Shown here in pieces: positions 9,962-56,165 of a stretch of 64,000 nt of DNA. The position numbers and the translations under genes are program-made. The stretch comes from an uncultured virus (IMG/VR IMGVR_UViG_3300005961_000014). Lineage: Duplodnaviria; Heunggongvirae; Uroviricota; Caudoviricetes. The notes beneath the pieces were generated by a model. It saw only the letters and a program-made list of their open reading frames with translations, was not told the DNA's origin and made no database searches. Positions within the stretch are counted from its first letter, which is position 1. Every line of letters begins with the position of its first letter. Location: IMG/VR virus record IMGVR_UViG_3300005961_000014, positions 1 through 64,000 of that record. One strand, written 5' to 3'.

Positions 9962-10453
9962 ATGACAGACATGAACGCGGTTTATGCCTTTAAGGGGGCT
10001 CTGGCGCAGTTTAAACAGGTATTGCAGGAGACGGGTGCATCCGCTGCCGTAGAACACCGCTTTGGTCCCACTGACGAGAACCCTGGAGGAACCAGTATTC
10101 GGGACATCCTGACTGATTCCGATCCCAACTACTCGTTGGAGCAAAGGAAGCTTTACGTCGTATCCCTTGTTGCTAAGCAATTAGAAACAACGGGTCATGA
10201 AATGGCAGAAGCTGCAAATGTGCTGCAATCCGCGCATGATCGTAGCGATAAGGTCTTTCGCTCCCAGGCGGCGGCTTTTGCGGCACTGGATAGTAACTAC
10301 CAAAGACTGAAGACCGACGTGAAAAACCTTGGATCAGCTTTCGAGGTAGACTTCACGGAATACGCTTTGGCACGCGGGTTTGCAATCCCTAACGAATTGC
10401 TGGATCTGATCATGCGTTTCCTGGATGACGAAGTAGGGAAGATCGTAACATGA
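9962..10453 (+). CDS. Hypothetical coiled-coil protein
   Basis: GGAGAG RBS before ATG 9962. Confidence 0.65.
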   Translation: MTDMNAVYAFKGALAQFKQVLQETGASAAVEHRFGPTDENPGGTSIRDILTDSDPNYSLEQRKLYVVSLVAKQLETTGHEMAEAANVLQSAHDRSDKVFRSQAAAFAALDSNYQRLKTDVKNLGSAFEVDFTEYALARGFAIPNELLDLIMRFLDDEVGKIVT

Positions 10454-10887
10454 AAACGAAACGTGCGTTTATCATCGATGCCGTAATCCGGTATATCAGC
10501 GAAGGGGGTCAGACGCCATACGTGGTTGTTGACGCGGGTCATCCGGATGTCATAGTTCCGGATGAATATGTCCAGAATGGCTTCATTACCCTGAACATAT
10601 CGCCGCGGTCCGTTCACAACTATGAATTAGGAGATGATGGATTACGATTTAGCGCGCGTTTCAACCGAGTATCGCGTTTCATTTCGGTGCCTTTGAGTGC
10701 TATCTGCTCCATTTTCCCGAAGGAAGACATTCGGGATAGCATTGTTTTCGTGAAAATCGAAGACACGCATTTTAGCGGCACATTCACGGACGAGTTTGAA
10801 CAACCAGCGGTGCAAGAAATTGCGCCCCCTGTAGTAAGAACCAAACCTACGTTGTCAATTGTGAAGGTGGAGAAACCTCATGAATAA
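10450..10887 (+). CDS. sspB: Stringent starvation protein B (ClpXP adaptor) homologue
   Basis: TPYVVVDA..PDVIVP.EYVQNG.I.LNISP..V, FSARF, VPL.AI; C-terminal KPTLSIVK resembles the ClpX-binding RPALRVVK tail. Confidence 0.85.
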   Translation: MKTKRAFIIDAVIRYISEGGQTPYVVVDAGHPDVIVPDEYVQNGFITLNISPRSVHNYELGDDGLRFSARFNRVSRFISVPLSAICSIFPKEDIRDSIVFVKIEDTHFSGTFTDEFEQPAVQEIAPPVVRTKPTLSIVKVEKPHE

Positions 10888-24118: not shown

Positions 24119-25759
24119 ATGCCTACGGTCGTACCTATTGAACCGGATGCCGCGCGAGGGTTCCGGGTGTGGAACATCTCGCAGATCTACACGGGTCCAG
24201 CGGGGCCGGGTCGCTACGTCCCTAATGTGGACGACATGGTGCTGGATTGGGACACGGGTTTCTATCGCGTGGTAAGCGTGGATGGATTAACACTGCTCAG
24301 CACGTTGGACTTTGTTCCTTTATCCACGATGAATGGCGGGGTATTGGAAGAGGACGTTCTGCTGGGTAGCGGTCCCGGAGGACATAGCGATTCTTACCGT
24401 GTCTATGTAGACAACGGGGAGACACCCCCTCGTCTGGCTATTTCATCCAGACTCTATATCCCGGGCGCTAATGCCTCTTATATCAAGGTTTTCCGGGGTA
24501 CTGACATCGGACCGACGGGAACTGTGGTATCTGGGATGTGGAACGGGTCTGTCTTCACTACGGAGAACATCCCACTGGTGTCGACACCCAAGGTTGCAGA
24601 ACAAGCCTGGGCAACGGAAAGCTTGGCGGATAATGAACTGGTAACTGCGGTGGTGTACACAGCCGCCGGGGTGAAAACCGGGGTCTACAAACTGGTTGTG
24701 GCTGAAACCAACTTCATCCATTCCAATGATCCGGTCAAACGCTTTGTCATGTCGGTCTCTCTGGTTTCCCCGTATCTTTCGGTTACAGATACCTCGATGC
24801 TGGAAGTCCCGGTTAATGCGATTCTGCAAAGCGCCAATCTCCAATGCCGGGTGCTCTATAGTGACGCGTCTGTGGAAACATTACCCATTGACGGATCACG
24901 GGCGCGCATCATGGGGCTGGATATGTACAGCGCCTCTATTGCAGGTCAACCCTCCCCGACCAGGCCGTTGATTTTGGTTTATACGCTCCAGCCGAATGAG
25001 TACGGATACGGTGTTAACGGCCCCTCGGGATCGCGCCAGATTCAAGTTCCGTATCGTGTTCGAACTACAGGTGCCGATGGAGCCTACACCGTCAAACTCT
25101 TCATCGTCCCGCGATACCAAGTCGTTCCCACCTCGACTTGGGTGTTGGATTACTATCTGTACGACATGAATCGTCAAACGGTCATCGATGTGACGTCGTT
25201 TATTGAGACCTCACCCTCTACGGGTGTTTTCAATGGAGGGTTACTGAATGTCCGGCAAACGATTACGGCGAGTTTGAATCTAGCCGACGTTAGTGGTGCG
25301 TACTTGCCGTACCGCTTTATCCAGACGTTTTCTATTCAACTGAAGGCTTCTGGCGCCAACACGCTGGCGGGAAACTACTGGCAAATGGAGTACAGTAACG
25401 GACACGTTTACGGGACGGGATTGATCGCGACGCGAGCTGACGATCCCTCCAATCCGTTGGATCACATGGTGACTGTATCGCTGAATCTACTGGACACTCA
25501 AGATTGGCTGGATCGGGTTTATTACCCGACAGAGCCCTTGCTGGTGCCTGGGGTTGAGGTAACTCCACCAACCCCAACCCATTTCCGAATACGGGTTAAT
25601 GGTTTCATGCGAGAAGTGGCTCTGCATGATTTCTACATCCCGATTGACGGGATCGCGGGAGTCCTGACACAGGGTACGCCAGTACGACTTGAGTTCTTCC
25701 TTCGGGATGGTAGTACGGACTATGAGTTGGGGATTGGGTCACTCACACTCAAGGTATGA
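24119..25759 (+). CDS. Virion structural/baseplate protein (gp26-like)
   Basis: W...IY.G..G.GRYVPNV.D.V.D N-terminus; beta-rich; synteny with terminase. Confidence 0.65.
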   Translation: MPTVVPIEPDAARGFRVWNISQIYTGPAGPGRYVPNVDDMVLDWDTGFYRVVSVDGLTLLSTLDFVPLSTMNGGVLEEDVLLGSGPGGHSDSYRVYVDNGETPPRLAISSRLYIPGANASYIKVFRGTDIGPTGTVVSGMWNGSVFTTENIPLVSTPKVAEQAWATESLADNELVTAVVYTAAGVKTGVYKLVVAETNFIHSNDPVKRFVMSVSLVSPYLSVTDTSMLEVPVNAILQSANLQCRVLYSDASVETLPIDGSRARIMGLDMYSASIAGQPSPTRPLILVYTLQPNEYGYGVNGPSGSRQIQVPYRVRTTGADGAYTVKLFIVPRYQVVPTSTWVLDYYLYDMNRQTVIDVTSFIETSPSTGVFNGGLLNVRQTITASLNLADVSGAYLPYRFIQTFSIQLKASGANTLAGNYWQMEYSNGHVYGTGLIATRADDPSNPLDHMVTVSLNLLDTQDWLDRVYYPTEPLLVPGVEVTPPTPTHFRIRVNGFMREVALHDFYIPIDGIAGVLTQGTPVRLEFFLRDGSTDYELGIGSLTLKV

Positions 25760-25813
25760 CCTATGGCAGATGTGGTGGTACACCACCACATCTGCTCTAT
25801 TAGGAGAACGCTT

Positions 25814-28015
25814 ATGATCCTCTTTGAAAAAGACTGGCAGCTCTATCCTACTGCTATTCCTGATTATAACACCAAGAACAGAACATTTGTTGACCTTGCG
25901 GCGAAGTACCGCAAAATGGGGGTTAAGAACTACAAGTTTTTGCTTGCACTGCACCAACCAGAATTACAAGGTGTGGACCCACACAGTCCATACCTATCCA
26001 TGGAACAACGCAGTAAGATCTCCATGGAATGTTTCCGAAATCCGTGGTACTGGTTTCGAGAAGTAGCGCGTATCCCGCCTCAAGGGTCTATGGATGGGAA
26101 ACCCTTTCGAGCGAATCGTGGTAACATTGCTTTCTACTGGTGTTTCTTTGCTCACGTATCACCCGCTAATGTGCAACCTCGTCAGACAGGTAAGTCGGCG
26201 GGGGCGGATATGTTGGATGTTTATTTGGTCACTATCGGAGCACGTAACGCGCTGATTAACGTCTTGACCAAGGATAGTGAGCTTCGTAGTGAAAACGTTG
26301 AACGTGTTAAGACGATGCGGATTTTGTTACCTGATTATCTACAAGCCTTCTCAAAGAAAGATCCGGATAACACCGTCGAAATTGCATGTACGCAATGGAA
26401 TAACCGGATTAATTACAAGGTGGCTCAGAACAGTCCAGCGGGAGCACTGAAGGTGGGTCGTGGACTGACAGCTCCGTTGAGTAAGATTGACGAAGTGGCT
26501 TTTGTCAGCTATGTAGACATTTCCATCCCTGCTATGCTCACTGCGGGTACTGCGGCTCGCGCTGAAGCTAAAGCAGCGGGGATGCCTTATGGGTCAGTCT
26601 TTATGACCACGGCTGGTAAGCTGGATTCCCGTGAGGGTAAGTACGCGTTCAATCTGATTCATGGGGGGATCCCGTGGAATGAATCCTTACTGGATTCCGA
26701 AGACGAAGCACAGCTCCACCGTCGTGTTGAACGTGGTAGTATGGGGACCAAACCGTTGGTCAACATTACACTATCGCATCGTCAGCTAGGGTATACTGAC
26801 GAGTGGGCATACAACGTCATGCGTGAAAACGATCTGACGGGGGAGGCGGCTGATCGCGATATCTTCAACGTTTGGACATCGGGGAGTTTGCGTTCTCCGC
26901 TTTCAGCTTCGCTGAATAAAGCCATTCGGGATTCTGAAGCAGAACCGGTATTTACCCAATACTTCCCGGAAGGGTACAACATTCGTTGGTATGTTCAGGA
27001 ACACGAAATAGCGGGACTATTAGCGGATCGTGGCGCGGTGGTAGGCATTGATACTAGCGATGCCGTTGGTCGGGATGGTATTTCGTTGGTGTTTTTGGAT
27101 CCACGCACTGTAGAGATTTTAGCGGTCGCCAATGTCAACGAAACTAATCTGTACGATTTTGCGCGCTGGTTAGCAGACCGAATGATCCAGTATGAGCGCA
27201 TGGTCATTATTCCAGAAAGGCGTTCATCGGGTCCATCCATCATTGACATGATTACCACGATGTTAATTGCCGCCGGAATCGATCCCTTCCGAAGAATCTA
27301 CAACCAAATCGTGGATGATTCGGTCGAGCACGAGAAGGACTATCGGTACATTCAACAAAACCTCTCACGACGTGATCCTAAACACATTACGTTATCAAAG
27401 GCTATGTTTGGGTTTACTACTTCGGGGTCGGGTAAGTTTAGTCGAAGTTCATTATACACGGACGTCCTGCTTCGCGCTGCCAAGCTATGCGCCAAGAACT
27501 GCCGCGATAAAACCCTCATTGATGAAATCACCGCGCTTGTTGAAAAGAATGGGCGCATTGATCACACGAATGGTTTGCACGACGATACAGTCATTGCCTG
27601 GCTGCTAGGGGTTTGGTTCCTAACCGTCAGTAAGAATCATCGGTTCTATGGATTGGATAACACCTTGTCGGAATCGTGCGAGTTTGATGACGACGTAGGC
27701 GTGGTTAAGAAGGCGGTGACTCCGTACGATGCTTACATGGATGAACAGCAGTCACGGGCGAAACTCTTACTGGAAGAACTCGCGGATGAACTCTCTGAAA
27801 CACGAGACCCCATACGCATTCAGCAGTTGGAACACCGGATGAGAGCGCTTTACGAGCGTGTCCCAGAACGGTCGCAAGGCTATATGACGCTGGATAAACT
27901 GTTTGAAGATGCGCGGACAGCGCGTAATCGTATGGCGCAGGCTCGTATACAAACACGTGCGAGCCCCGGTCCCTGGCGAGGGACTAATCTCTCACGGCGG
28001 TTCCCGGGTCGTTAG
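25814..28015 (+). CDS. terL: Terminase large subunit
   Basis: Walker A QPRQTGKS, GRG, Walker B IDE, TTAG; nuclease GIDTS and HDD. Confidence 0.9.
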   Translation: MILFEKDWQLYPTAIPDYNTKNRTFVDLAAKYRKMGVKNYKFLLALHQPELQGVDPHSPYLSMEQRSKISMECFRNPWYWFREVARIPPQGSMDGKPFRANRGNIAFYWCFFAHVSPANVQPRQTGKSAGADMLDVYLVTIGARNALINVLTKDSELRSENVERVKTMRILLPDYLQAFSKKDPDNTVEIACTQWNNRINYKVAQNSPAGALKVGRGLTAPLSKIDEVAFVSYVDISIPAMLTAGTAARAEAKAAGMPYGSVFMTTAGKLDSREGKYAFNLIHGGIPWNESLLDSEDEAQLHRRVERGSMGTKPLVNITLSHRQLGYTDEWAYNVMRENDLTGEAADRDIFNVWTSGSLRSPLSASLNKAIRDSEAEPVFTQYFPEGYNIRWYVQEHEIAGLLADRGAVVGIDTSDAVGRDGISLVFLDPRTVEILAVANVNETNLYDFARWLADRMIQYERMVIIPERRSSGPSIIDMITTMLIAAGIDPFRRIYNQIVDDSVEHEKDYRYIQQNLSRRDPKHITLSKAMFGFTTSGSGKFSRSSLYTDVLLRAAKLCAKNCRDKTLIDEITALVEKNGRIDHTNGLHDDTVIAWLLGVWFLTVSKNHRFYGLDNTLSESCEFDDDVGVVKKAVTPYDAYMDEQQSRAKLLLEELADELSETRDPIRIQQLEHRMRALYERVPERSQGYMTLDKLFEDARTARNRMAQARIQTRASPGPWRGTNLSRRFPGR

Positions 28016-28518: not shown

Positions 28519-29124
28519 TTAGGGAGTTAGTGACAGCTTCTCTTGCTCACGCACCCATTCCTGTAATGCGCGCAACTGCTCTTCGATACTCAAAGTGTAT
28601 TCAGATTCGATCGCATGCTGTTGGGCAATGTCGGAGAGGGTGATGTCTGAAGTGACTTCTTCAACTTGAAGGTTGAGAGACCCAGGGGTTCTCTCATCAG
28701 GATCTCCGGTGGTTTCGGGAACGTAACTTTCGCTACTACCGGCGTTGGACATGTCCCACAACTTGACAAAACCAGTGGGAATAGTACAGCGGCGATCATC
28801 AGCTTGGGTGACATACTTGGGTACCTCCTGAATGATGGTTGCAGCCTTTTGGTGGATAACCTTGACACGATCCACGTACTTAGTCACAACCTGGGTCGTC
28901 ACCTTCGTTTGCTGGGCTTCCAGACGCGCTGCAGCAGCATCTGCCTGAGCAAGAAGAAGGGCGGCTTGAGCATTACGTAACGCCATCTCACGGTCAGCCA
29001 AACGCTTAGCGTCATAGCTTCCCTTGCAATACATACCCACAAGCAGCAACAAGATGGTCAGCACGCTGACAATGTGAAACACCAGGGAACGATTCTTTCT
29101 CGCCCAGATAATAAAAGCCATCAT
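28519..29124 (-). CDS. Rz-like inner-membrane spanin
   Basis: N-terminal TM helix, Ala-rich coil, VVTKYVDRVKVI...VPKYV...C.IP.GFV.LW motif. Start uncertain. Confidence 0.75.
   Translation of the reverse strand: MMAFIIWARKNRSLVFHIVSVLTILLLLVGMYCKGSYDAKRLADREMALRNAQAALLLAQADAAAARLEAQQTKVTTQVVTKYVDRVKVIHQKAATIIQEVPKYVTQADDRRCTIPTGFVKLWDMSNAGSSESYVPETTGDPDERTPGSLNLQVEEVTSDITLSDIAQQHAIESEYTLSIEEQLRALQEWVREQEKLSLTP
28590..28814 (-). CDS. Rz1-like outer-membrane lipoprotein spanin embedded in Rz
   Basis: Alternate frame: MSPKLMIAAVLFPLVLSS-C lipobox followed by a Pro-rich segment. Confidence 0.75.
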   Translation of the reverse strand: MSPKLMIAAVLFPLVLSSCGTCPTPVVAKVTFPKPPEILMREPLGLSTFKLKKSLQTSPSPTLPNSMRSNLNTL

Positions 29125-29230
29125 GATTGCAACGCCTGTGTAAGTGAGGTGACTATAAAATAGGTTAATCGCAGTGAAAAATATGTACACACTATTTTAG
29201 TGACATTAACACTCGAAGGAGAGTAAAAAA

Positions 29231-29914
29231 ATGGGCTTAGCTAAGTGGGAAATTAAACGGGTTCCACGTATAAACCCGCTGTGGATCAGTTGGTGTGAAG
29301 TGGCTGGTGGTGGCATGATGTTCATGGCTATTGGTCGAGGCATTCCATCAGTTTGTTATTACAGCACGGATAAAGACGGTATGTCATACGTCCCCCGCCT
29401 CCACGATCTTCCGTTTGACTTCAATCGCGCTGCTACGCTGAAAATGATGGAAGAAATCACGGCAGATAAACCCTACATGCTGGCGGCTACCGAGGAGCTG
29501 GAAACCTTTGTTCAAATGATGGCTCAGTGTGAAACTTGCGATGATTTCCGCAATCATCCTAATTTCGTACTGATCTCCAATCGGAACTGGAATGTCAGTC
29601 TATTCCGCGTGCCGAATGCGAAGGATGACTGCAAAGACCTCGTTGAACATTTTCACACGGATGCATCCATGATAGCGCGAGCACCGGCAGATCTGGATGC
29701 GTACATCTACACCATGCCCGTTCCATGGATGTGTGTTACGTACCGGCGAAACGGAGAGCTGGTCTATGTAGACCACTTTGTTGTGGATGACCCCGAGTTC
29801 ATGAAGGAACACGATAGCGATATGGTTCGTGTCTGGGGAGAATGGATTCAGCGAGTCTATGACATGAGTGCTATTGCGGCTGACTATCTTAAGGCACAGG
29901 TCAACGAGCTGTAA
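29231..29914 (+). CDS. Hypothetical protein
   Basis: GGAGAG RBS; promoter-like motif at 29181. Confidence 0.65.
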   Translation: MGLAKWEIKRVPRINPLWISWCEVAGGGMMFMAIGRGIPSVCYYSTDKDGMSYVPRLHDLPFDFNRAATLKMMEEITADKPYMLAATEELETFVQMMAQCETCDDFRNHPNFVLISNRNWNVSLFRVPNAKDDCKDLVEHFHTDASMIARAPADLDAYIYTMPVPWMCVTYRRNGELVYVDHFVVDDPEFMKEHDSDMVRVWGEWIQRVYDMSAIAADYLKAQVNEL

Positions 29915-29972
29915 TTTTTTACAGCGTGTAACACTATTATAGGAAACACGCATTACATTTAGGAGATCATTC

Positions 29973-30167
29973 ATGCTAAGACGGTGGGCGTTAATCGGCC
30001 TCGGCTTTGGGTTTGGTCTTTTACACTTCGGTTTTGACATGTGGCGGATGTCGGATCTCACGATCCATGAGCCGCCTGGTCAGGGTGCGGCTGTAGCCGC
30101 AATGAGCGAAAGTCGCGTACAGCAATACGCGCATATCTACCGGATTGTGAAAGAAGAGTACGGTTGA
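29973..30167 (+). CDS. Possible small membrane peptide (overlaps the structured RNA candidate)
   Basis: AGGAG RBS; hydrophobic N-terminus. Confidence 0.4.
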   Translation: MLRRWALIGLGFGFGLLHFGFDMWRMSDLTIHEPPGQGAAVAAMSESRVQQYAHIYRIVKEEYG

Positions 30168-30403
30168 ATGAAGCGGCTGACCACCGCAATGTCAACGAGC
30201 TACAAACTTTACCTCGTTGTCAACATCCCAGGCTATGCTTTAGGACCCTTAAACGCGGGTCACTGAAATCGTTGTCATGAGGCAGCGTAAAGGAGCACGT
30301 CGGATACATGCTGTTATAGCCTGAAACTAGAGATGTCTCTGTGCGCACAGAGGATCATCATAAGTCAGTAAGGCATAGCGGCTGGAACCCTGACGCTCCA
30401 CAA
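29985..30403 (+). ncRNA. Candidate structured ncRNA with tmRNA-like ends
   Basis: Many nested helices; TGGGCGT at the 5' end can pair with ACGCTCC-A-CAA at the 3' end; immediately followed by a terminator. Confidence 0.4.
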
Positions 30404-30404
30404 G

Positions 30405-30434
30405 AGGGATCCCTTCGGGGGTCCCTTGCTTTTA
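30405..30434 (+). terminator. Intrinsic terminator
   Basis: AGGGATCCC-TTCG-GGGGTCCCT followed by TGCTTTT. Confidence 0.75.
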
Positions 30435-30477: not shown

Positions 30478-31113
30478 ATGTGTAACAAAAGCAAAGACTC
30501 GGTTATGAAAGAGGCAATTGCAGCTATTCCTCTTCTTTCCACAGCATTTTCAAAGGGAGTCCGTGCTGCGAATCCCACTAAAGATCTACCCTACGTCCGG
30601 CAGGATGGAACGCGGTACTGGGTGATGGATAACGAGACTTCGATTGAGCATCGAGCAGAGGCAGATAGCTGGCTGATTTACAGCGAAGACCAAGTGGTAG
30701 CTATCTTGTCACCTTTGGAGTTCCGTTCCAACTATGGTGACCCGTTGGTGATTCGCCGGATGGAGATTTCCATTGTCCCGAAAATGGGATTGCGGACAGT
30801 AGCACACCTTCGCGCAAGTGAAGTACCGCAGATGTCCGGTCAAGTCAATATCACCAACGTGTTTGAATATGGTGAAACGGTTATCTTCACAAGCACGCAG
30901 GCTGTCACCACGGAATACTTTATCAAGAAGGTGATTGAGGCACTGCCGGACATCTTCAATTACCAGCCTGTGCTTGATGTTGTTTGGGACGTGATCAAGC
31001 ACAAAATGGAATACGTACATGGGTACAGCAGTGTAACGGATACTCCCGGTGTCCCGCTGGGCAAACCCGTAGAGGCGTCGGAGATTGAGATTAGCTACTT
31101 CGAGGTACGGTAA
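30478..31113 (+). CDS. Hypothetical protein
   Basis: AGGAG RBS; 211 aa. Confidence 0.65.
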   Translation: MCNKSKDSVMKEAIAAIPLLSTAFSKGVRAANPTKDLPYVRQDGTRYWVMDNETSIEHRAEADSWLIYSEDQVVAILSPLEFRSNYGDPLVIRRMEISIVPKMGLRTVAHLRASEVPQMSGQVNITNVFEYGETVIFTSTQAVTTEYFIKKVIEALPDIFNYQPVLDVVWDVIKHKMEYVHGYSSVTDTPGVPLGKPVEASEIEISYFEVR

Positions 31114-33779: not shown

Positions 33780-35120
33780 ATGCGTAACAAAGTCACCCCG
33801 ACAACAATGATGTCGGAGGTTATGGTTAATGTGGTATCGGACTTCATGAAAGGGATGATCAGCAACATCCCTGATAAGCTGATCACCTTCACCACTGACC
33901 AACTCACTGTGACCCTCACGCTGTCCACCGGACAGTATTCAAACGAACCGAACTTCTACGCGTTCATGCAGTGGTTCTTTAAGCATCCCGCTTCCAAGAA
34001 GATCCGGAACATCGTGCTGGATTACTATCGCGATGAGGACTGGAACCGACTCACCGCGTTGGGTCCAGCCAACGGCAAGTATTACTTCTGGCACAAGGGG
34101 CGGTTGTTCTGGTTCAATCGTGAAACGCACAAGATGCCGAATGAGACCCAGAACACGGTCATGATCAGCACCTATGGACGTGACCAGAAACCCTTGCTGA
34201 ATCTCTTGGCAGAGTTTCAGGTGAAGGAGTCTCGCGGTGAACGCATCTACAGCTACAGTTGGAAAGGGGACGGCTGGAGCAATCAAACCAAAGTCGCGCC
34301 GCGACCCTTGGACACCATTGCCATTGACAAGGCTGTGTTGAACAAGATCATCAGCGCGATTGATGAGTTCAAGGCGGCGCGTGAGTGGTATGTTCAAACG
34401 GGTATCCCGTACAAGTTGGTCATCATGCTTTACGGACCTCCTGGGACCGGGAAGACTTCTCTGACACGGGCGCTGGCAACGCATTACAAGAGCAACATCA
34501 ATCGCCTCAGCCCCAGCGGACTCTCGGAAGAGCAGCTTTTCATGGCGATCTCATCGGTTCAGCCTGGCGATATCCTGTTCATGGATGATTTCAACGCCAA
34601 TGGGGATTTCTGTATCCGTCGCGGTATGGAAGGTGAAGCTCAGCGCCTGAAGGCAAAGCGTGAAAGTGATACGGATGCTGAAGATGCCCGGGAAGCTGAA
34701 AAGTTGGGAGGGTCTTTGGTCATTCCGGCAAAGCGTCAATTATCACTCGAGGATGAAGGCGGTGGAAAGGATTCGACGATTGAGTCGTTGCTGAAGAGTT
34801 ACAGTCTGGGCTCTTTGCAGGGATTCCTCCAAGCCATTGATGGTGTGGTTCCTCTGGATGATGTGGTTGTCATCATGACGACTAACACAATCGATCAGGT
34901 TGATCCTGCCTGCCTGCGTTGGGGGCGGGTGGACGTAACCGTTGAAATCCCGCATCTGCATCACGAGGCCATTGTTGACTACATCACGCGGATCTGGCCT
35001 GGCAAGTCGATCCCTGATGTGGTTTTCTCAGATATCCCCGGGTGTGATCTGGCGCAGGCTTTGTCTGAAAATCGTCACGACTTCAATGCGTTTATCGACG
35101 CTATTCCGAAGGCGATGTAA
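33780..35120 (+). CDS. BCS1-like AAA+ ATPase
   Basis: RPLDT, EWY...GIPYK, Walker A YGPPGTGKTS, AIDG, MTTN, DPA.LR.GRVD; BCS1-type N-domain (GP..G.Y.FWHKG..FW..R). Confidence 0.8.
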   Translation: MRNKVTPTTMMSEVMVNVVSDFMKGMISNIPDKLITFTTDQLTVTLTLSTGQYSNEPNFYAFMQWFFKHPASKKIRNIVLDYYRDEDWNRLTALGPANGKYYFWHKGRLFWFNRETHKMPNETQNTVMISTYGRDQKPLLNLLAEFQVKESRGERIYSYSWKGDGWSNQTKVAPRPLDTIAIDKAVLNKIISAIDEFKAAREWYVQTGIPYKLVIMLYGPPGTGKTSLTRALATHYKSNINRLSPSGLSEEQLFMAISSVQPGDILFMDDFNANGDFCIRRGMEGEAQRLKAKRESDTDAEDAREAEKLGGSLVIPAKRQLSLEDEGGGKDSTIESLLKSYSLGSLQGFLQAIDGVVPLDDVVVIMTTNTIDQVDPACLRWGRVDVTVEIPHLHHEAIVDYITRIWPGKSIPDVVFSDIPGCDLAQALSENRHDFNAFIDAIPKAM

Positions 35121-35177
35121 GGCATAGCAGCATAACCAAGGGAGGTGTTCCTCCCTTTTCTTTTTTGGAGAACGAAT

Positions 35178-35615
35178 ATGTACGAACCTGCTTTTGGTAA
35201 CATCCTTACGACACGGGCAGCCGGAATTGTAATCCCTGTTAACACTGTCGGGGTTCCGGGAAAAGGGTTGGCAAAACAGGCTGCTGATTTGGTACCGGGA
35301 TGGGAAGAAGATTACAAAGCCAGTTGCGATTTTCTGGAGGTTGGTTCAGTGTCGCTGTACTGGCTTGATAAATCGACAGTCTTCATTTCGCTACCTACGA
35401 AACGGCACTGGCGTGATCCCTCAAAACTTGAGTGGATTGCAGCGGGTTTAGACGCTACCATCAAAGCGTGCGAGGCTGAGAATATTCCCACTATTGCCAT
35501 ACCCATGTTGGGATGTGGATGTGGGGAACTTAATTGGGCTGATGTGCGTGCATTAATTCGTGAACGGTTTGATAAGACCGCAGTGAAGGCGTACATTTAC
35601 GGACCCTTAACGTAA
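35178..35615 (+). CDS. Macrodomain ADP-ribosylhydrolase (DarG-like)
   Basis: GNI, VNTVGV.GKGLA, LPTKRHWR.PS..EWI..GL, IAIP.LGCG.G.L.W. Confidence 0.8.
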   Translation: MYEPAFGNILTTRAAGIVIPVNTVGVPGKGLAKQAADLVPGWEEDYKASCDFLEVGSVSLYWLDKSTVFISLPTKRHWRDPSKLEWIAAGLDATIKACEAENIPTIAIPMLGCGCGELNWADVRALIRERFDKTAVKAYIYGPLT

Positions 35616-47851: not shown

Positions 47852-48277
47852 ATGGATACCCAGATGATCCCAACCGTTGTGATAACCTGTCTGATCGCGT
47901 TGATCGCTATCGCCATCTGGCGATACCTCTGCGACATCAAGCGAGCCATGGTCTTGATCGAGCCATGTGCTAACACCCTGGATGAACTTCTGGATCGCGT
48001 CCGCTGGAAGCAGCACTCGCATTCCCGGAGCCTGGAATACTCGTTGACCCGATCGGGGATCTGGGACATCCTCCGAACATTGGATCGGATTGGTATCGAG
48101 AACCGGATTGATCGCTATGCGCTCACCAGTGCGCTTAACGCCTTGTGTCGACACGATGTCCAGTGGGTGGCCAGCCCACGAGGGTTCGGGGTAATTTTCG
48201 ACGAAGGTGCGCTAGTGGGAACGATTCACTGGAATCTGAACGATCGATCCATCGAAACGGTTGAGGGGTCCGTCTAG
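47852..48277 (+). CDS. Hypothetical membrane-anchored protein
   Basis: N-terminal TM segment; GGAG RBS. Confidence 0.65.
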   Translation: MDTQMIPTVVITCLIALIAIAIWRYLCDIKRAMVLIEPCANTLDELLDRVRWKQHSHSRSLEYSLTRSGIWDILRTLDRIGIENRIDRYALTSALNALCRHDVQWVASPRGFGVIFDEGALVGTIHWNLNDRSIETVEGSV

Positions 48278-48279
48278 CT

Positions 48280-49070
48280 TGATGATTCTCTGGGAGCCGT
48301 TTTAAGACCCCTCAAATACCTGGGTAGTACCTTAGTACTCCCGGGGGGTTTTATGCCGCTAGAATCTTCTCGTACGAAGTCCTAGCGGTATTTTCAAACT
48401 AGGTTTAGGGTGTTAGTTTTTTCTTTGGCTGAAAACGGGTTACGAAACCCATGCCTTCCTTAACGCCCGCGCTACTGAAGGATCGCGCGCGCCCTAAGAG
48501 TACTCACAAAACAAGTAGCGGCACTGGCCGTGTTTGAATAGATTCTGGGGGTGACGGCTGTCACATGCAGTTGCCCTGGTGGAAAAACTGCGTGTTTTTA
48601 ACGATTTCAGACTGAATCTGATCGAAATTCGAACCATCTGAATACCAGCCGGGGCTCAAACCCCGGCGGCAGAGTTCAGATTTGTGTTTTTGCCAGAGCA
48701 AAAACCTTGGTCAGATCGATTTTGATGCACTTCGGGGTCGTTGACCCCTCGTGATCAATTTAGATTATTTATAATCTTAACTTAGGGGATATTTTACGTT
48801 AGTAAAATATAAATCTAAAACAATAAATAATTTACTATACGTAATACTACGTAGTAGTATTACAAAGAAGCGGGCGCAGGCGTGATGTGCGCGCACGCGG
48901 TATAGAGTACGCGGATGCGCAGAATGCGCACACGCTAGTTGGAACCTGCGCGCGGTATAGAGTTTCGCGCACATACTGGAAGAAGACCTCTGGATCGTCA
49001 GTGAAAAATAACTGCTGATGTGATACTATGCGACGAGTCATTCGTGATTCCAAAACCAAACTGGGAGATC
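48280..49070. other. Long non-coding region with AT-rich core, palindromes and direct repeats (origin-like)
   Basis: No credible ORF; AT-rich 48755-48865; CGCGGTATAGAGT twice. Confidence 0.45.
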
Positions 49071-54482: not shown

Positions 54483-54680
54483 TTAACCGCCTGCGTTAAC
54501 CAGATGCTGATGCTTCCAGTAATCGTTACTCAATACCAACTGCACGTCACCATGTAGCTCGTTCCCCAGTTGATTGAGCTCCAGTTCTGTTTGCTGTGCA
54601 GAGTTAGTCGGAACCTCGGTAACCGGAGCGATTTCAGACAACTCCTCCAAACCCAGGCGATAGAACAGTTTGTTGCTCAT
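54483..54680 (-). pseudogene. Truncated paralogue (leader only) of the adjacent internal head protein
   Basis: Same MSNKLFYRLGLE start; 34 identical nt with 56136-56169; own GGAG RBS. Confidence 0.55.
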
Positions 54681-54758: not shown

Positions 54759-56165
54759 TTAGGCAGCTGCCGGCTCTTCCTTCTTCGGCTCTTCGGCTTT
54801 CTCACCGCCACCGGCTGCCTTCAGACAGAGGTCGCCATATGCCAGATAGGCCTTGGCAGTCTTCTGAACATAGTTGACAACCATGTAGTCAGCAGACACC
54901 AGTGCAGACCAAGCAGTACCGAAGGCACGAGCAAAGTTGCTGCGTTCCTGAGCGATACGCGCTTTGTCACCTTCGTTATTACCGGTCGCTTCTTTAGCAG
55001 AGCTTTCCAGTTGCTTGATCACGAGGCCACGCAGATGCTCACGCTGTGCGTAAGCCTTCTTGTAGCTACCGATCTTCTCGAAGATGCCGGCAGCAGCAGT
55101 TGCCAAAACCTTGACGTCTTTCGGAGCAATGGCTTCGCCTTCCAGCTTGCGATCAGCGCCGCTCAACAGATCCATGATGGTGAACTTGTACTTGCCAAAC
55201 ATTCTGGAGGCTTCACCCAGATCTTTCGGGGTTTCGCCAGAAGGTATGATAATGTACAGGCCGTTGTTGCCGGGAAGAATCTTCTTGCCGCGAGCCACAG
55301 TGGCACTCTCAGGGGCCCGGGAAGGATTGGTGATGACCACCATGCCATCCAGCGGTTTCAGGACGTTTTCGTATGCAGTGTTCAACTGCTTAACGCCTTC
55401 ACCGGCGGCACTGTTGGCAGCATCAATGTCAGTGGCCTTGAAAACCTTGTCACCGATCGCTCCCATATCGGCAGCAATAAGAGCGCTGGAACCCAATGCG
55501 GCCATCAGACTGGCCACGCTTGCGGTACCAGCCACAACAGTGGCCTTGTTCAGCTTGCCGTTGATTTCAAGGGTTTCCAGCAAACCTGTGTTGGATTCCT
55601 TGAAGTCAACTGTACCGGCGGCTTTACCGGCCATTTCATCAGCCTTCTTAGCGAGGGCGTTGGCGCGGGCTGTCAGCTTGGCGGAACCATCGAAGACGGA
55701 CTTGATCCAACCGGAGAAGGTATTCCACAGCTTCTTGAGCTTCTCGATCAGTGCACGACCCAGTTCCTTGATCTTGTCCAGAGCGCCTTCCATCGAAGCG
55801 ACAACCGCATCTTCAGGAGAGTTGATGGACTCAGTAGAAACGGTCAAGGTTGTGCCACCGAACCACTTCCGATTCACGGCGTTGATCGCCATGTTGGAGA
55901 AGACTATCGCGTCCTTGGTAGGCTTACCGCTCTTCAGCGCAGCTTCCAGACCCTTCACCACTTCACCCATGGTTTCAGTGTCGGCATCAATCGCTTCAAC
56001 ATCGTCAGCGTCGCCTTCGACTTCTTCACCTTGCTCTTCAGCGGCCAGGACGTCAGATTCAGGAGAGGATTCGCCAGCGATTTCTTCCAGTGACTCCGGC
56101 TCGTCAGCCGGAGCGTCTTCGACCAGGTCTTCAAGACCCAGGCGATAGAACAGTTTGTTGCTCAT
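54759..56165 (-). CDS. Internal head (ejection) protein with acidic propeptide
   Basis: Acidic N-region with GLE/SLE/STE/SME sites, then ASME|GALDKIKE...KLW...W pattern of phiKZ-like head-protein paralogues. Confidence 0.75.
   Translation of the reverse strand: MSNKLFYRLGLEDLVEDAPADEPESLEEIAGESSPESDVLAAEEQGEEVEGDADDVEAIDADTETMGEVVKGLEAALKSGKPTKDAIVFSNMAINAVNRKWFGGTTLTVSTESINSPEDAVVASMEGALDKIKELGRALIEKLKKLWNTFSGWIKSVFDGSAKLTARANALAKKADEMAGKAAGTVDFKESNTGLLETLEINGKLNKATVVAGTASVASLMAALGSSALIAADMGAIGDKVFKATDIDAANSAAGEGVKQLNTAYENVLKPLDGMVVITNPSRAPESATVARGKKILPGNNGLYIIIPSGETPKDLGEASRMFGKYKFTIMDLLSGADRKLEGEAIAPKDVKVLATAAAGIFEKIGSYKKAYAQREHLRGLVIKQLESSAKEATGNNEGDKARIAQERSNFARAFGTAWSALVSADYMVVNYVQKTAKAYLAYGDLCLKAAGGGEKAEEPKKEEPAAA

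Follow-up and report, generated by a model that had tools for sequence, protein, structure and literature searches.

Type I toxin mRNAs are small-protein mRNAs with long folded untranslated regions. The standard one-piece tmRNA is represented by Rfam family RF00023, of which the database of PMC11915505 holds 79 phage sequences, and its alanine identity lies in a G3-U70 pair and A73 (PMC3985003). The tmRNA of Mycobacterium phage Phabba (NC_054714.1) keeps G1, G7-C66, A20, and a canonical T-loop, and it has a long tag with an end other than AA. The TLD-only tmRNA of mycobacteriophage DS6A (JN698994.1) is ~80 nt long and has a canonical T-loop, G1, G7-C66, and A20. Group I introns interrupt tmRNA T-loops, also just after the first U, and the smallest known intron-form tmRNA gene is 545 bp (PMC11915505).

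We analyzed a 64-kb window (the whole stretch of DNA examined, 64,000 nt), which is the start of a 75,081-nt viral record whose terminase (25763-28015) is 40 to 44% identical to phiKZ-like jumbo phage terminases. A preliminary description had proposed that positions 29985-30403 encode a structured RNA of about 420 nt with tmRNA-like termini, either a divergent or decayed tmRNA or a novel noncoding RNA. The candidate is flanked by two plus-strand genes, o227 (29231-29914) and o211 (30478-31113), neither with an assigned function. Between them lies an orphan ORF of 64 codons that had been overlooked, o64 (29973-30167, plus strand), which covers the 5' 183 nt of the candidate. It is followed by a 236-nt tail (30168-30403) without an ORF of at least 60 codons and by a terminator-like hairpin. 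Our best explanation, held tentatively and at slightly short of even confidence, is that the stretch forms one transcript, an mRNA that encodes a small protein and ends in a folded tail. In view of the ORF with its start signal, a wholly noncoding RNA of ~420 nt is doubtful.

The candidate resembles a standard tmRNA in its similar length, in G3-U70 and A73, in a D-loop-like GG..UCG spaced correctly from the acceptor, and in the adjoining terminator. Unlike a standard tmRNA, it has no T-loop, carries U1 for G1, U7-A66 for G7-C66, and G for A20, has a connector helix that is not above chance, lacks an A-rich resume context, and has a gene-like start 12 nt upstream. In a closed-frame model, and only there, it shares with DS6A the acceptor, a stemless D region, one long arm, a T-stem, and the lack of a tag frame in the arm, but its T-stem halves are 300 nt apart, and the canonical T-loop, G1, G7-C66, and A20 of DS6A are missing. 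Like the intron-form tmRNAs of PMC11915505, it would have T-stem halves kept apart by a long folded insert, bordered by a U on the 5' side; unlike them, it has no group I core, is unspliced in one RNA run, would yield no canonical loop after joining, and is much shorter than the 545-bp minimum. With type I toxin mRNAs it has in common a short ORF, a hydrophobic N terminus, a predicted-paired ribosome-binding site, and a long folded tail; it differs in having no identified antisense partner or family match and in its modest hydrophobicity. This arrangement is not described in the largely open-access literature on phage and jumbo-phage tmRNA and tmRNA-like RNAs covered by our search.

The start of o64 is preceded by the ribosome-binding site AGGAG (29961-29965, plus strand), in the same form as at the phage's other gene starts. 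All 22 plus-strand AGGAG-n5-9-ATG sites open frames of at least 64 codons, the o64 frame being the shortest, versus 1 of 5 minus-strand AGGAG-ATG sites of the same spacing, and the plus-strand count argues for an mRNA. So does the o64 codon score (+3.0 bits), which is exceeded by 3.9% of 2615 wrong-frame windows and thus lies above 96% of them. The start signal, the open frame, and the codon bias of a small protein gene are all present, but the bias is weak: 9% of 523 coding windows score lower, and the first 42 codons have a negative score (-2.9 bits). The N terminus of the peptide is mildly hydrophobic, with a modest peak of 1.32. Searches returned no homologue of the peptide, and both this result and a codon score in the lowest 9% of coding windows count against a protein-coding transcript.

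A putative phage promoter motif, ACACTATT(A/T)TAG, is located at 29931-29942 (plus strand), 42 nt upstream of the o64 ATG. The preliminary description had placed a promoter-like motif near 29920; no sigma-70 promoter was found there, and the phage-type motif sits at 29931 instead. Four copies occur in the 75-kb record at no more than one mismatch; one of them, at 29189, has the same 42-nt distance to the ATG of o227, and another, at 65134, precedes a further gene. Because the 42-nt distance equals that of o227 and suits phiKZ 5' untranslated regions, which are mostly 31 to 40 nt long (PMC8244752), it favors an mRNA starting at this motif. The motif was matched six times in relatives, in no case followed by SD-ATG, and since it is unsupported there, which speaks against the mRNA, its role as a promoter at 29931 is only presumptive. 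An extended motif around ACACTATTTTAGTGACAT is near-identical at 29170-29205 and at genome positions 65115-65150, upstream of two unrelated genes, and is a candidate promoter for the phage's own RNA polymerase.

In the explanation that we favor, a phage transcript of ~490 nt would run from the 29931 motif to the UUCG terminator, and its predicted translation product is an orphan peptide of 64 aa. The folded 236-nt untranslated tail would likely slow decay and tune translation. The ribosome-binding site at 29961 is mostly paired in the predicted full-length fold, where pairing with 30014-30023 would occlude it. The tRNA-like ends would then be a coincidence or a functionless trace.

The preliminary description had assigned the candidate its own transcription unit, and we consider a separate unit likely. 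In metatranscriptome run X4, which belongs to a different study from the probable source of the record, a single contig with no joint covers 30019-30323 at a depth of 21.8, versus 2.3 to 2.9 for the three other pieces of that run, or about eight times their depth. This enriched contig was seen in one of four RNA-type runs. Run X7, which is RNA by guess, covers only the 5' part of o227 (29246-29412, depth 56.6), run X8 does not cover the stretch, and run X3, which is probably DNA, reaches no further than its first 32 nt. Contigs from these runs show neither ends nor strand, and absence from them is no evidence. The X4 contig is a weak hint of an abundant transcript across ORF and tail. That a single contig from an RNA library spans both is in line with an mRNA and equally compatible with a stable RNA. 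Separately, X3 contigs are 86 to 91% identical to the spanin-like gene at 28798-29137, so a diverged relative of the phage is present in that sample.

Every helix arm named in the preliminary description is present in its place. The local hairpins built on CAACGAG, GACCC, and CTCTGT are well predicted (pair probability of 0.6 to 1.0), but the long-range helices CTGAC/GTCAG, CAGGCTAT/ATAGCCTG, and GCAGCGT/ATGCTGT have a probability of 0.00, and the nested model as a whole lies 8.2 kcal/mol above the free fold. The UUCG terminator that was said to follow directly is confirmed as a hairpin at 30404-30427 (plus strand) with a UUCG loop, a short U tract, and a pair probability of ~1.0. The candidate (29985-30403) folds better than shuffled sequence (z = -2.66; 0/100 shuffles as good), but its folding is unexceptional for this genome. 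The folding is concentrated in the tail (z = -3.17; 0/200 shuffles as good), where local hairpins occur together with several long helices that exclude one another, one of them of 11 bp (30232-30242/30369-30379). The ORF part (29973-30167) folds no better than shuffles (z = -0.94), and this division supports an mRNA with a structured tail. In a genome comparison run, the tail had a z of -2.84, and at least 15 of 160 same-length genome windows were lower (mean z of -1.0); with 14 shuffles per window this comparison is noisy, and many of the windows contain terminators. The minus strand of the stretch folds equally well (z = -3.03), and among 150 shuffles, 62% contain a Watson-Crick helix as long as the longest one seen (8 bp) and 67% do so when G-U pairs are allowed (11 bp). 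As several incompatible folds lie within 10 kcal/mol, one sequence does not fix the structure.

Of 137 terminators in relatives, 10 have a gap this long in front of them, a rarity that weighs against the mRNA. The analyses of the relatives' terminators (end ranking, gap lengths, and motif) left out 14 of 80 loci as near-duplicates. Gaps of 365 to 790 nt without a 60-codon ORF precede terminators in the jumbo relatives at L043:5571(+), L009:14347(-), L068:822(+), and L052:6630(+), where small genes, tRNAs, or noncoding RNAs are possible. Elsewhere in the genome, the junction before the terminase gene (25684-25919) is the strongest folding window sampled (z = -6.6) and also the only other weak match of a covariance model built from the 5' half of the candidate.

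For comparison with real tmRNAs, sequences were fetched from bacterial genomes and 81 of 84 loci were kept, one being dropped as mis-called and two for want of an accepted ARAGORN call. The scan of the genome collection used a gap sized for ordinary tmRNAs, and 41 loci served only to fetch real tmRNAs. ARAGORN and Infernal/Rfam, the checks suggested in the preliminary description, do not call the candidate, even with RF00023 alone; ARAGORN relaxed down to 60% never called its ends, and an HMM built from the 81 real tmRNAs gave no match. Relative to these 81, 21 of 33 near-invariant terminal positions match without gaps and 12 are broken, including G1, G7-C66, A20, and five T-loop bases. The 5' end (29985-30005, plus strand) consists of an acceptor-like strand (29985-29991) and a 13-nt D-loop-like segment. 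It matches at G2, G3, G4, G13, G14, U17, C18, G19, and C21, so that GG, UCG, and C21 of the D-loop are in tmRNA register, and it mismatches at G1, G7, and A20, the last replaced by G, each of which is found in 81/81 real tmRNAs. The 3' end (30372-30403, plus strand) comprises a degenerate T-arm-like segment, an acceptor-like strand (30393-30399), discriminator A30400, and CAA. Here 12 of 21 near-invariant positions match, and the mismatches are U54, U55, C56, A58, U60, the AC of the linker, G52, and C66. The acceptor stem proposed between TGGGCGT (29985) and ACGCTCC-A-CAA (30393-30403) forms six of seven pairs, among them the G-U at position 3 and a U7-A66 pair at the seventh position; at position 1-72, U and C face each other unpaired. 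The alanine identity features G3-U70 and A73 are both present. The T-arm is noncanonical, as had been described, with an in-register loop (GCUGGAA) that breaks all five T-loop bases listed above. The encoded CAA, which had been called noncanonical, is ordinary and occurs in 11 of the 81 real tmRNA genes.

With the T-arm included, the end score of the candidate is below those of all 81 real tmRNAs. The connector duplex (-9.9 kcal/mol) is weaker than 81/81 real ones, and 61% of 500 shuffles are as good. Pseudoknot tiling gave a z of -0.8, a weak test because 11 real controls ranged from 0.0 to -3.4. The best resume-like core is a GCA at 30099 (position 115), which is in frame with o64, inside a hairpin, and without A-rich context; its core score of 6.7 is near the 10th percentile of real sites, and the full resume score of -4.4 is below the real minimum of 3.2. 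What had been taken to resemble the end of a YALAA tag reads YALGPLNAGH before a stop, inside a 32-codon frame and with no stop after the YAL motif, at position 250 versus resume codons at 87 to 103 in 80/81 real tmRNAs. Since phage tags vary, as the Phabba tag does, the missing AA end alone is not decisive. With the T-arm, G1, G7-C66, A20, the connector helix, and the resume context all failing, and these failures also favoring an mRNA, the candidate is no working tmRNA and should not be annotated as ssrA.

Anchored just upstream of the terminator, the tRNA-like ends take the top place among 331 phage terminators under each of the four scoring settings, a result that an mRNA leaves unexplained. 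Because 8 to 33 of 155,748 background windows reach the end score of the candidate and there are 25 terminators, the chance of such ends is ~0.001 to 0.005 per genome. The tmRNA-like termini noted in the preliminary description are thus unlikely to be pure chance when scored before a terminator, but the unanchored acceptor-plus-D-loop score is common, being equaled or exceeded by 8 pairs elsewhere in the genome and by 45 in the 2.1 Mb from relatives (this unanchored comparison, which also took in the T-arm, omits two loci and contains two mis-parsed rows). For a single window the resemblance is strong, but such cases are bound to turn up when very many windows are scanned. Among 25 real tmRNA loci, the 5'-half model weakly matched the 5' end in 4.

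A frame that closes on these ends can be drawn. The segment GTCAGGGT (30079-30086, plus strand) is a perfect 8-bp partner of 30387-30394, with a pair probability of 0.00 in the free fold. Within it, CAGGG (30081-30085), a possible 5' strand of the T-stem, pairs perfectly with CCCTG at the T-stem position, which gives a frame with ~300 nt instead of the T-loop. The arm of this model is an alternative long helix, 30002-30013/30062-30074 (plus strand; duplex of -15.6 kcal/mol), that competes with a local hairpin of probability 0.97. A perfect T-stem partner preceded by GG, with such an arm just upstream, was found in 2 of 20,000 shuffles in a tight test and in 145 of 6,000 in a relaxed one, both tests being devised after the sequence was seen. 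Motifs picked out by eye that look like parts of group I introns, group II introns, or RNase P were dropped because Rfam did not support them. A 291-nt tandem duplication hinted at by two short repeats was likewise rejected (alignment score of 86 versus 74.6 ± 8.3).

This frame underlies a reading of the locus as an eroded or repurposed tmRNA-derived RNA, which we regard as unlikely on balance and yet as the main rival. The frame would have an acceptor (29985-29991/30393-30399), an arm (30002-30013/30062-30074), and a T-stem (30081-30085/30388-30392), ~416 nt in all, with a folded insert of 300 nt in place of the T-loop. Excision of the RNA from its transcript would likely fall to host RNase P and 3' trimming and would take away the ribosome-binding site and start codon, and the stable product would likely be a decoy for SmpB or for tRNA-handling enzymes, damping host tagging of stalled proteins. 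The decayed tmRNA of the preliminary description survives in this form, its ends being unlikely as pure chance, although the conserved tmRNA core is missing. The first rank among 331 terminators with its low chance estimate, the 21 of 33 matching positions without gaps, six acceptor pairs that stay intact although U7-A66 replaces the invariant G7-C66, the T-stem partner and arm that are rare in the post hoc shuffle tests, and an X4 contig at about eight times neighboring depth all speak for it. There is also the precedent of a TLD-only phage tmRNA in DS6A, and a similar molecule inhibited tmRNA (PMC4131195). Set against this, the closed-frame fold costs 9.6 kcal/mol relative to the free ensemble, the unanchored end motif is common in the genome and its relatives, and DS6A and Phabba keep G1, G7-C66, A20, and a canonical T-loop, which the candidate does not. 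This reading would also have to account for 64 open codons and for the gene-like start 12 nt upstream, the enriched contig appears in one of four RNA-type runs, and no homologue was found. A combination of both ideas, an abundant dual-purpose transcript of a nucleus-forming-type jumbo phage that serves as a small-protein mRNA and is cut by RNase P into a stable 416-nt RNA and possible rescue decoy, strikes us as improbable. RNase P would cut at the tmRNA-like acceptor stem, and a 300-nt folded domain would project from the place of the T-loop.

The remaining explanations have smaller chances. In a decayed locus, o64 would be what remains of the N-terminal part of a longer gene, possibly lysozyme/SLT-like, after truncation by a stop or an insertion, and the tail would be functionless. 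We judge this rather improbable. The frame goes on for 32 codons directly after a single TGA (30168-30266, plus strand; TGA-ATG in the same frame, no family match), the folding z is unexceptional in the genome, the cassette is absent at the same position in the closest relatives fetched, and Atlas leads for o64 point to short lysozyme/SLT-like clusters. These leads score 0.80 to 0.88, under the tool's bar of 0.9 and at a level that shuffled proteins attain a third of the time; no lysozyme/SLT-like remainder was found across the 75-kb record, neither the start signal nor the terminator is damaged, and the stretch is present in one RNA run. A self-splicing intron in the T-loop, or a catalytic or structural RNA of some other kind with no link to tmRNA, is highly doubtful. 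U30086 and G30381 are possible splice-site bases, GCGGCTG is repeated at both borders (30087 and 30378), and known group I introns enter tmRNA T-loops, also right after the first U; yet no group I intron or other Rfam match was found in the candidate, the X4 contig crosses 30086/30087 unspliced and without a joint (contigs drop rare forms), the joined loop would not be a canonical T-loop, and known intron-form genes are larger. Least credible, and very improbable indeed, is a functional, highly divergent tmRNA charged with alanine and carrying a nonstandard tag, either AMSESRVQQYAHIYRIVKEEYG followed by a stop from a resume GCA at 30099 or AYSNTRISTGL followed by a stop from a GCG at 30115. 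G3-U70 and A73, a length of 419 nt versus 348 to 410 nt in real tmRNAs, the core resume score at 30099, pseudoknot-like pairings that can be tiled along the sequence, and the freedom of a phage tag to be long and not end in AA are in its favor. They are opposed by the 12 broken positions, an end score with the T-arm below those of all 81 real tmRNAs, a connector duplex weaker than all 81 and at shuffle level, the unremarkable pseudoknot tiling and failing full resume score, and the lack of a match to the HMM.

Searches for homologues returned no second version of the locus. No credible homologue of the candidate was found by blastn in isolate phages and plasmids or by nhmmer, blastn, and ARAGORN on 80 related jumbo phage loci, and the best blastn match among 49 whole related records (E value of 0.006) was on the terminator. 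Of five motif scans of the viral collection, two gave no matches and the others gave 20, 22, and 1, all judged chance. Single-sequence covariance models, one for each half of the candidate, were run over 50 records; an 18.8-bit partial match in record G038 covered 63 of 179 positions and was not accepted, and a 13.6-bit match lay inside coding DNA of the phage's own genome. Searches with the neighboring genes recovered one identical copy (L215) only. The only other copies of the stretch, in L215 and the sequencing runs, are identical, with no variant letters in the RNA.

The upstream gene o227 has two full-length relatives (58% and 45% identity), and the downstream orphan o211, which has its own AGGAG start, matches only its own cluster and no phage. 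The closest relatives fetched, L001 and L002, are 50% identical in the neighboring 418-aa gene; in both, a spanin-like gene lies within ~340 nt after this gene, and the o227-o64-o211 cassette is absent from that position. None of the three genes had a tblastn match in 80 related jumbo phage loci. Because of these two absences, the three-part cassette is likely a variable insertion. Several other regions of the window stand out. About 800 nt at 48270-49070 have no obvious gene, an AT-rich core near 48750-48870, and several inverted repeats, which suggests an origin-like or regulatory region. A BCS1-type AAA ATPase gene followed by a Macro-domain gene occupies 33780-35615, and the adjacent minus-strand ORFs at 54483-54680 and 54759-56165 begin with the same 11 residues, MSNKLFYRLGL, suggesting a possible partial duplication.

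The genome carries an SspB-family gene (10450-10887; PF04386, 61 bits), which had been offered as support for a tmRNA because SspB binds ssrA tags. That support does not hold, as SspB is found in 8 of 49 related records and none of the 8 has a tmRNA. No tmRNA above the Rfam cutoff was found in the 49 related records, and no SmpB gene was found in the 50 records searched, most of them partial. The occurrence of SspB in tmRNA-less jumbo phages suggests that it may have another use there as a protease adaptor.

If the stretch is the mRNA that we tentatively favor, it adds an orphan small gene with an unusually long tail and is of modest interest. If it is instead derived from a tmRNA, the range of phage tmRNA mimics would widen beyond compact tRNA-like domains and take in a large RNA whose T-loop is replaced. 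Such an RNA would be invisible to ARAGORN and Rfam and may offer phiKZ-like phages a testable route to disturb ribosome rescue.
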